The position numbers and the translations under genes are program-made. A stretch of 64,000 nucleotides of DNA from an uncultured delta proteobacterium (GTDB lineage Bacteria > Desulfobacterota > BSN033 > UBA1163). The stretch lies in contig CAVPSJ010000004.1 of assembly GCA_963708295.1 (NCBI GenBank), positions 96,001 to 160,000 on the forward strand, written 5' to 3'. The notes beneath the pieces were generated by a model, which was not told the origin of the DNA, made no database searches, and worked only from the letters and a program-made list of their open reading frames with translations. Positions 8,791 through 48,160 of this stretch are shown here, in pieces. Position 1 is the stretch's first letter. Each line of letters begins with the position of its first letter.

Positions 8791-9268
8791 TTACCTCCAT
8801 TTGTGTGACCATGGACTTTGCGCACGGGTCATGCTCTGGCGCATAAGATTGAAGAAACGTTGTTGCTGATCGGGATCGAGGATCTTCTTTAACTCCGTGA
8901 TATGCGTGATGACTTCCTTTTGAATCTCATCCTGGATACCCGCCATCTCTTTCCGCAGATTCTCTATCTTCACAGGGTCGCTGTTTTTCTGAAGGAGAGT
9001 TACGAAAATCTCTTTTTTCTCCTCCATGAGCGCTCCCCAGTTCTGCAAGCCGCCCATGAAACTTCTGGGCCAAGGGATCCATTTTTGATAATTGAACATT
9101 CGAAAGGCCGAGGGACTGATAGAGATGACTGTCTCCCGGTGACATGGGACAGGGCGCTGAGGATGTAGTAGAGGCGTTAACGTAATAATGGTATCCCATG
9201 GAGACCAGGACACCTGCATTGATTGCTAATGACAGAACCAGAACGACTGTCAACCACTTAGATTTCAT
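8791..9268 (-). CDS. Periplasmic heavy-metal sensor (Spy/CpxP/CnrX-like), frameshifted
   Basis: LVLSLAINAG anchor, LGLSNVQ, ILDPDQQQRF. Confidence 0.75.
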
Positions 9269-37403: not shown

Positions 37404-37727
37404 TCAAGATTGGGCGAGGGCGTAGCCTGCTTTTCTCCATGCCTCTACGCCGCCGGCGAGGCATGCCACATTCTTGTAACCCATTGCCATATACTTCTCT
37501 GCCTGACCGGCAGATGTCTTCTCATCGTGTCAGCCTCAGTAAAAAACGATCTCCTGATCCCTTGACAGCGAAGAAAGTTTGGACTTGAACTCGCTCAGGG
37601 AAATCGCTCCTTCCAATTGCATTGCTTTGAACCTCATCTCATCCTCGTATGCGCAGACGAGCAAAGCTTTCCCGGATTTCAATTTGTCATAAACTTCCTC
37701 TGCGGTAACGCGTTCAGGTTCCGACAT
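37404..37727 (-). CDS. Rhodanese-domain protein with two in-frame UGA codons, putative UxU selenoprotein (107 aa)
   Basis: EIVFY-TGA-G-TGA-HDEKTSAGQA..GYKNVACLAGGVEAWRKAGY in one frame; GGAGG RBS. Confidence 0.8.
37498..37514 (-). promoter_or_regulatory. Putative bacterial SECIS hairpin
   Basis: UCUGCC-GGUCA-GGCAGA; loop starts 21 nt after the second UGA and 27 nt after the first. Confidence 0.65.
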
Positions 37728-37861
37728 GATTTGCCTCCTTTTCCCCAATCCAATTTTCTCCACCATTGTAAATCTCAGTTGGTCAAATAATCAACACTTT
37801 TCCGGAACAACGATGATTCCAAGGTTTAACTTAGCAGTTAACATGGAAAAAACATTTTTCG

Positions 37862-38127
37862 CAGGCTGCTCAAAAATGCCCAGATGCAAGGCGCCCAAAA
37901 TCCTGAGAGTGGCGCCGCGACGAATAAGGAGCGACATCTTGCCACGCCGACGAGTTGGTGAGTCGGCCGGAGGCGTACTTGAATGTACGCTGCAACGACG
38001 AAGGATGAGGGGTGGCGTCGCGACGAATAAGGAGCGACTTATTGCCACGCCCCCGAGCCGGTGAGGGGGCCGGATACCGCCGCAGATGCCTGCCTGCCGG
38101 TAGGCAGGGGCGTTTTTCAGCAGCCTG
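37862..38127. mobile_element. MITE copy A with nested insertions
   Basis: Termini CAGGCTGCTCAAAAA / TTTTTCAGCAGCCTG; core shared with 40929..41079. Confidence 0.8.
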
Positions 38128-38514
38128 TCAGATTGATCTGATAGGTATCCTCCTTGTCGTAGACCTGGGGACTGTATTCGATCACAAGCGTATCTTCCAA
38201 CCCGTAGAAGCGATGGCCGCAGCGGGTTTCACTCTTATCTTATCTCCTTTTTCAAGAATCCTTTCTTCCTTTTGAAGCGTGTCTATATCGATCAACGATA
38301 CTTTGACCTTTCCCTGAAAGATGTAGAAGATTTCTTCCTTTTTTTCATGGTAATGATCACCCCTGGAGTGCCCTTTTTTAATCTCAAACGCAGCTAAATG
38401 GCGCATCGATTCCTGATACGCAATCTGAACGAATTCCCCCCTTTCCTCCTCCCACCTTTTGGGTCCGGGGATTTCTTTTGTGTTGGGCAGTTTTTCAACG
38501 GTCACTTTATTCAT
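38117..38514 (-). CDS. Cupin-domain protein, frameshifted
   Basis: RGDHYHEKKEEIFY motif; stop codon lies in the MITE terminus. Confidence 0.75.
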
Positions 38515-48047: not shown

Positions 48048-48085
48048 CTATCTCAGATTAAAGAAAAAACTTTAAACCATAGTTA

Positions 48086-48160
48086 ACGATAAAGCCAAAC
48101 CACGAGCAATCGTGGGACGGAAAGCCACGGGTCCCCTGGGGATAGCCGGGTTGCCTAGAT
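48086..48160 (+). ncRNA. Cyclic dinucleotide riboswitch (c-di-GMP-I / GEMM-I)
   Basis: GCCAAACCACGA-GCAA-TCGTGGGACGGAAAGCCACGGGTCCC..GGGATAGCCGGGTTGCC fits the GEMM P2/P3 layout. Confidence 0.9.

Follow-up and report, generated by a model that had tools for sequence, protein, structure and literature searches.

A rhodanese-family gene with two in-frame UGA codons and one candidate SECIS hairpin in an uncultured delta proteobacterium

Described rhodanese selenoproteins and bacterial SECIS elements

The closest system described to date is a rhodanese-related sulfurtransferase in which, as Zhang and Gladyshev put it in the part of their 2007 paper available to us (PMC1976440), "a second Sec evolved ... 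resulting in a UxU motif"; this form was drawn from the Olavius algarvensis symbiont metagenomes, that is, from deltaproteobacterial symbionts. The protein apparently encoded in the window (the whole 64,000-nt stretch of DNA analysed here) is likewise a rhodanese-family selenoprotein with U-x-U, though the likeness is one of description and not of compared sequences, and the 2007 form may belong either to the window's subfamily or to the one modelled as NF041203. Since a U-x-U rhodanese was already reported in 2007, the window gene is a new example and not a new kind. The same part of PMC1976440 makes no mention of a shared SECIS, of the number of origins of U-x-U or of its frequency. The remaining interest of the gene lies in the apparently shared hairpin, in the repeated replacement of Cys by Sec at the catalytic position and in widespread mis-annotation.

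In the available parts of a 2022 review (PMC9312934) and a 2026 paper (PMC13188914), the rhodanese family is listed as C-x-U, with one Sec, under NF041203. That model, rhodanese_LYCAU, is the best NCBIfam match to the window protein, and shows the subfamily's C-x-U-P-x-E loop together with, as seen in the paralogs of the window's own genome, a SECIS hairpin that keeps the same register relative to the codons. Within the C-x-U motif the window protein has U at the second position and U in place of C at the first, where 40 of the 53 orthologs discussed below have C. Its score on the model, 63.9 bits, stays below the cut-off of 115, and three orthologs score 64.3, 49.2 and 67.7 (49-68 for the orthologs overall), so that the window's subfamily is to be seen as a sister of NF041203 and not as a member; no NCBIfam model reaches its cut-off on proteins of this subfamily. 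Three C-x-U paralogs lie in the same genome, on contigs 16, 11 and 19 (C16:50758-51063, C11:311723-312028 and C19:103968-104180; L081, L082 and L083, respectively); in all three the hairpin loop starts the same 21 nt after the UGA, and the stem sequences differ. The contig-16 paralog, L081, passes NF041203 at 184.6 bits and has an N-terminal extension, which looks like a lipoprotein signal and has no counterpart in the window's subfamily.

Two close selenocysteines in a redox-type motif occur also in proteins that differ from the window protein in fold and in the spacing of the two residues. Eukaryotic SelL has UxxU and uses a 3'-UTR SECIS. The others are the bacterial Prx-like proteins with UxxU and TsoB with UxxxxU, as given in the available parts of PMC9312934 and PMC13188914, respectively.

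According to the available part of PMC8659212, the UGA and the upper SECIS stem-loop of E. coli are 11 nt apart. The hairpin in the window resembles this fdhF SECIS/SelB system in lying inside the coding region just 3' of the UGA and in having G and then U in its loop (GGUC here), but its stem stands 15 and 21 nt after the two UGAs instead of 11, there is no evident bulged U in the 6-bp stem, and the hairpin would serve two UGAs. With the stem at these two distances, a single hairpin would need to function in two registers that differ by 6 nt. No case of SelB working in two such registers was found in the literature searched, nor is the question of a bacterial SECIS shared by two close UGAs taken up there, as judged partly from titles and the beginnings of abstracts in a search confined to openly available main texts.

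The gene, its active site and the Sec machinery

The features of the gene are collected in Table 1. The table-11 list of open reading frames holds an ORF at 37536..37766 that ends at the codon-64 TGA, and the preliminary description of this DNA had noticed that a rhodanese frame continues beyond that stop. Translation with TGA as U bears this out: the minus strand reads TAC TGA GGC TGA CAC at 37541-37527 (motif Y-U-G-U), and the frame from ATG 37727 passes U64 and U66 into 41 more sense codons with a rhodanese C-terminus. The observation of two in-frame TGAs within a real rhodanese gene is confirmed, and there is support for the view that the ORF call conceals a selenoprotein gene. That Sec, and not some other residue, enters at both UGAs is what we infer from the sequence. 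The promoter listed in the table is of a kind to be expected by chance, shuffles averaging 1.5 sigma-70-like sites.

Table 1. Features of the rhodanese gene, in window coordinates
Feature	Position	Strand	Remarks
Predicted coding sequence, single-domain rhodanese selenoprotein, 107 residues	37407..37727	minus	TGA read as Sec at codons 64 and 66
Start codon ATG	37727-37725	minus	orthologs share the same Met
UGA codon 64	37536..37538	minus	canonical rhodanese catalytic Cys position
UGA codon 66	37530..37532	minus	Sec in nearly all orthologs
Terminal UGA stop	37404..37406	minus	orthologs end within a few codons, many with TAA/TAG
Cys25 codon	37653..37655	minus	invariant column C25 in the 23-sequence ortholog alignment
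Putative ribosome-binding site AGGAGG	37734..37739	minus	6 nt before the ATG, read from the sequence
Sigma-70-like promoter match TTGATT-18-TACAAT	37765..37794	minus	consensus match only, 9/12 positions
SECIS-type hairpin UCUGCC-GGUCA-GGCAGA	37498..37514	minus	centroid fold, -10.2 kcal/mol
Hairpin, 5' arm	37514-37509	minus	
Hairpin, loop GGUCA	37508-37504	minus	
Hairpin, 3' arm	37503-37498	minus	

The Pfam Rhodanese model PF00581 matches residues 8-99, thus flanking both TGAs, with an E value of 1.7e-11 and 44.8 bits (cut-off 22.2), and the match covers positions 1-101 of the 102 in the profile. An AF2 model built on 23 orthologs (pLDDT 91.1) has a strand at residues 59-63, a loop at 64-69 and a helix at 70-81, residue 64 being the first after the central strand. 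The top Foldseek matches are all rhodanese domains, the best of those in the PDB being single rhodanese domains. GlpE (1gmx) and the Francisella rhodanese-like protein 6mxv share the fold (TM 0.77-0.79, query-normalised), but their loops are 1-2 residues shorter than that of the window protein and they have Cys only. In every printed alignment to a solved structure that spans the loop, residue 64 falls on the catalytic Cys (both domains of 6mxv, 3gk5, BH2092 and the second YnjE domain). Residue 66 lies within a 1-2-residue loop insertion relative to the solved rhodaneses or, in the case of BH2092 (3nhv), which is ungapped across the loop and has its Cys in the position-64 column, on a Gly. These alignments, together with the strand at 59-63, bear out the earlier placing of the first UGA at the rhodanese catalytic Cys. 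The emphasis of that description has nevertheless to be shifted, in that the nearly universal Sec of the subfamily is the one at codon 66, and codon 64 varies between Cys and Sec. Positions 64 and 66 form a family signature together with Cys25, which sits in an LLVCAYEDE-like strand and, to judge from the fold, would come to lie near the active-site loop.

The components of Sec decoding that the preliminary description had named (selA, selB, selC and selD) are all found in the window's genome, which is 91% complete and consists of 20 contigs. They comprise tRNA-Sec (81.4 bits), selB (353 bits) and selA (625 bits), the latter two matched without an in-frame stop, and two selD genes (C17:66608-67531 and C4:371872-372792; L018 and L019, respectively), each of which has one in-frame TGA near its N-terminus. 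The matches to tRNA-Sec, SelA, SelB and SelD are all above the family cut-offs. About 900 nt upstream of the contig-17 selD copy there is a rhodanese-like ORF (C17:65517-65687).

Orthologs, the hairpin and the history of codon 64

The read-through protein, with stops counted, was the query for the ortholog search. An ortholog was found in 23 of 61 related genomes (E <= 1.5e-31), eight of them having two TGAs and 15 having one; the 68 genomes of the class had 28 places in 27 genomes at E <= 1e-20; and among 401 genomes drawn from the phylum there were 37 places in 35 genomes. The resulting read-through set comprises 53 different genes from 52 genomes (L057 is a duplicate of L054). Outside the 53 stand further places from the phylum search (G132:C379, G195, G257, G434:C122, G229, G228 and G216), each with one TGA and two of them with TAA stops as well.

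Among the 53 orthologs, 12 have the motif [YN]-U-x-U, 40 have [YF]-C-x-U, a single one has Y-C-x-S and none has C-x-C. Codon 66 is TGA in 52 and TCC (Ser) in the remaining one; codon 64 is TGA in 12 and TGC or TGT in 41. By family within the phylum, nine of the U-x-U genes belong to the window's own, two to f39 and one to f111. The C-x-U relatives named in the preliminary description do exist. Its further suggestion, that U-x-U would be unusual, is contradicted by the 12 orthologs, by 56 of the best 120 database clusters and by the 2007 report.

For the wider family we took the best 150 of 6846 matches in a 50%-identity library and analysed 149, leaving out P0060; 103 of these domains keep Cys25. 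They include 46 C-x-C, 22 cut at codon 66, 14 C-x-S and four C-x-D forms, two each of W-x-W, C-x-W, C-x-G and C-x-T, seven single other cases, and two in which both columns are empty, as would fit a cut at codon 64. Through the C-x-C members, both UGA positions have Cys counterparts. A Sec-free C-x-S branch, in which Cys64 and Cys25 are retained, is made up of L063 (G434 C13), P0018, P0019, P0024, P0031, P0098 and P0101.

The preliminary description had assigned one hairpin to the two UGAs, with its loop 21 and 27 nt after them. Both values stand, but their order has to be exchanged: the loop begins 27 nt past UGA-64 and 21 nt past UGA-66, the stem 21 and 15 nt past them, respectively. Folded as a single sequence, the 76-nt stretch is no better than shuffles (z 0.10), and the case for a hairpin beyond chance therefore comes from comparative data, namely the TGA frames of other genomes, pairing and covariation. 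In a gap-free 75-nt alignment of the 53 genes, 94.0% of the 318 cells that make up the six hairpin pairs are paired, as against 16-52.5% with the partners slid; the covariation of the pairs is 0.195, as against 0.100 ± 0.014 in shuffles, with 0 of 500 shuffles as high; and RNAalifold gives exactly the same six pairs. The pair of columns 30-42, both of them third codon positions, is UA in 32 genes, CG in 8, UG in 4, AU in 1 and unpaired in 8. G-U pairs, compatible with the mRNA strand only, occur in four of the six pairs. The third base of the loop, U36 (the T of GGT), is a synonymous site and is T in at least 90% of cases. Consensus folds yield the same hairpin in the same register for the 12 U-x-U genes and for the 40 C-x-U genes. 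As had been claimed, a single conserved hairpin lies downstream of both UGAs in the 53-gene comparison. No second hairpin for UGA-64 was found within the 75 nt after the UGAs in the consensus folds of the 12 and the 40 genes, the U-x-U subset adding small weak stems only, one 5' of the UGAs and one ~50 nt past the hairpin. The comparison suggests that one hairpin serves both UGAs.

The bSECIS model quoted in the available part of PMC13188914 has a loop of 3-9 nt, a stem of 4-16 bp, G within the first two loop bases, a distance of 16-37 nt from the UGA and an MFE <= -7.5. The corresponding values here (5 nt, 6 bp, GG, 21 and 27 nt, and -10.2) fall inside these constraints for both UGAs.

There is also an alternative helix, excluding the SECIS hairpin, in which the hairpin loop is paired to the UGA-66 region (columns 9-14 with 34-39, or ~37533-37528 with 37508-37503); one side of it runs from the third base of codon 65 through UGA-66 to the second base of the codon that follows, and the other takes in the loop and the first base of the 3' arm. 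It wins several single-sequence folds and is paired in 80.8% of cells, with weak covariation (0.093 vs. 0.065 in shuffles). Since most of its columns are conserved for other reasons, this helix, possible though it is, is not adopted here. A stem similar to the SECIS hairpin, at the same position, is retained in the Ser form L063 (C-x-S), from which it appears that the Ala and Gly codons of a GC-rich gene can form part of the stem unaided. A scan lists the hairpin as a terminator on the plus strand, a reading that was rejected: its T-run is a poor one, there is no gene on that strand ending at this place, and the G-U pairs are compatible with the minus strand only.

In the maximum-likelihood tree, which ignores U, comprises 103 columns and has a bootstrap that is not settled, there are six changes between U-x-U and C-x-U, at least three of them forced by well-supported branches. 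The sister of the window gene is a C-x-U gene (support 91/89), and the clade to which the window gene belongs contains seven U-x-U genes and one C-x-U gene (support 95/96). A tree constrained to a single clade of the 12 U-x-U genes is worse by 55.7 log-likelihood units and is rejected (p-AU 0.0257). Codon 64 has switched between Cys and Sec repeatedly, at least three times, on a p-AU of only 0.026 and a short alignment. In one genome (L054; G072 C127:7849-8163 and 8900-9208) a U-x-U and a C-x-U copy lie on the same strand ~740 nt apart, and these two copies fall in different clades of the tree.

The best explanation of the locus, to which we give a probability of roughly three in four, is that of a U-x-U rhodanese in which both UGAs are recoded from one hairpin, the first of them having arisen by a change from TGY to TGA that took place repeatedly. 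SelB and Sec-tRNA(Sec) would recode both codons by way of the single hairpin that follows them at a distance of 15 to 21 nt. This hairpin would originally have served UGA-66, and a single-base change at codon 64 would then have put a second UGA within its reach, more than once. The product would be a cytoplasmic single-domain rhodanese of ~107 residues with an enlarged active-site loop and two selenocysteines, Sec64 at the position of the canonical catalytic Cys and Sec66, the Sec of nearly all orthologs, two residues on. Residues 64 and 66 and Cys25 may cooperate, for example via a selenylsulfide or a diselenide, in a protein acting as a carrier of sulfur or selenium (persulfide or perselenide) or as a redox protein. 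The function can be put in general terms, as presumably one of sulfur or selenium transfer or of redox chemistry; the diselenide centre or selenium-carrier role offered in the preliminary description is a guess.

A rhodanese in which the Sec of the catalytic position is followed by another at +2 is a candidate perselenide, persulfide or diselenide centre. Ortholog pairs of C-x-U and U-x-U genes with an identical hairpin constitute a natural test of how much freedom there is in SelB-SECIS spacing, and bear also on whether one hairpin reloads SelB fast enough for UGAs one codon apart. The broader proposition is that one short SECIS programmes two Sec two codons apart, with SelB acting in two registers 6 nt apart, that this tolerance has been exploited at least three times, and that a catalytic Cys has become Sec beside an existing Sec; the nucleophile of the rhodanese would then be selenium, and the Sec-x-Sec pair, with Cys25, could carry a perselenide or close into a diselenide. 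This proposition seems to us somewhat better than an even bet.

Alternative readings, database records and surroundings

The evidence from other samples consists of contigs; the best run has a 0.33 share of the sampled words, and none has half or more. All but five rows of the table of contig differences were considered. Two contigs of independent runs keep both TGAs unchanged: record 23 of X8 spans 37527-37677 with no differing letter, and record 4 of X1 spans 37498-37559 with one differing letter, position 37515 being the sole X1 difference listed there. The two UGAs and the hairpin are also covered by a contig from a metatranscriptome (X15 record 9, 37422-37643), for which the listed differences include none at 37530-37538; the sequence is thus present in an RNA library, which can contain DNA, and may be transcribed.

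Among the 406 database proteins at E <= 1e-10, the best 120 clusters were classified. Translations that end at codon 63 (51 clusters) and at codon 65 (43 clusters) account for 94 of these 120, and where such fragments have a name it is mostly "hypothetical protein"; ten C-x-W and five W-x-W forms, in which TGA was called as Trp, ten C-x-S forms and one that is frameshift-like make up the others. One fragment (P0099) is filed as an "ArsR family transcriptional regulator", and P0069 is among the fragments in public sources. Gene callers cut the gene at codon 64 or 66, the usual public call being a 63-residue "hypothetical protein", and a subfamily profile allowing C or U at position 64 and U at position 66 would mend many records.

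UGA-64 could be read through by something other than Sec, either a near-cognate tRNA (Trp or Cys) or a mis-charged tRNA-Sec, so that only codon 66 would give Sec and the protein would be C/W-x-U. It does sit 6 nt farther from the hairpin than UGA-66, for which the hairpin evolved, and the E. coli model has a fixed spacing of 11 nt; the 27 nt from UGA-64 to the loop are, however, within the published bacterial range of 16-37 nt, and a position with Cys in 41 of the 53 orthologs and a Sec codon in the other 12 makes a classic Cys/Sec pair. Moreover, at least three lineages either gained U-x-U or retained it, and leaky read-through would be costly at a catalytic residue. We regard this reading as improbable, and the same low weight goes to the possibility that translation of the U-x-U genes mostly ends at codon 64, whether because these genes are decaying or because the first UGA, as a selenium-dependent gate, holds the full-length protein to a very low level. 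Two successive UGAs would indeed multiply the chance of termination, and 63-residue calls are the commonest type among the best 120 clusters, but those entries are the output of gene callers and carry no evidence on the protein. Against termination there is the hairpin itself, which is kept in the U-x-U genes, and the pattern of substitution on either side of the UGAs. In the seven U-x-U genes of the main clade (21 pairs), pN/pS is 0.20 over codons 9-63 and 0.28 over codons 67-101, or 0.25 downstream without the hairpin codons; in all 12 U-x-U genes (66 pairs) it is 0.26 upstream and 0.36 downstream, or 0.31 without the hairpin codons. Neither stops nor indels are present in the 35 downstream codons compared. 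This purifying selection past the UGAs argues, on comparative evidence, that the downstream part is translated in the U-x-U genes.

Far less credible than either of these is that the TGAs are errors of sequencing or assembly, or that TGA is a sense codon throughout the organism. Some metagenome callers do print W at TGA (P0002-P0014), but both TGAs are found in 12 genomes and in contigs from independent runs, and the window gene and 11 of 23 orthologs terminate in TGA where the rest have TAA or TAG. The selA and selB matches without in-frame stops, in a genome with a complete Sec system, speak likewise against a sense TGA.

The surroundings of the gene give no functional hint: there is no conserved gene neighbourhood, no neighbour recurring in more than 7 of 52 loci. 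By eye, the neighbours are what we take to be cupin-like, HtrA-like, QueF-like and LMW-PTP/ArsC-like proteins, an aldo-keto reductase, an OYE and an MsrAB. Just upstream of the putative rhodanese promoter lies a dispersed repeat of ~270 nt (37850-38130), parts of which match up to ~48 places in the window's own genome; it holds internal repeats, and ORF translations show a recurring RRIRSD-LPR-like peptide. At 37846-37900 the summed contig depth in wetland metagenome runs is up to ~47,000, with loose ends on both sides. ARAGORN finds no tRNA within the window. Rfam at the gathering threshold has no SECIS-type family at the locus; in the whole window it matches just one element, a c-di-GMP-I-GGC riboswitch aptamer (RF03167) at 48085-48159 on the plus strand, with 65.2 bits vs. 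a gathering score of 59.
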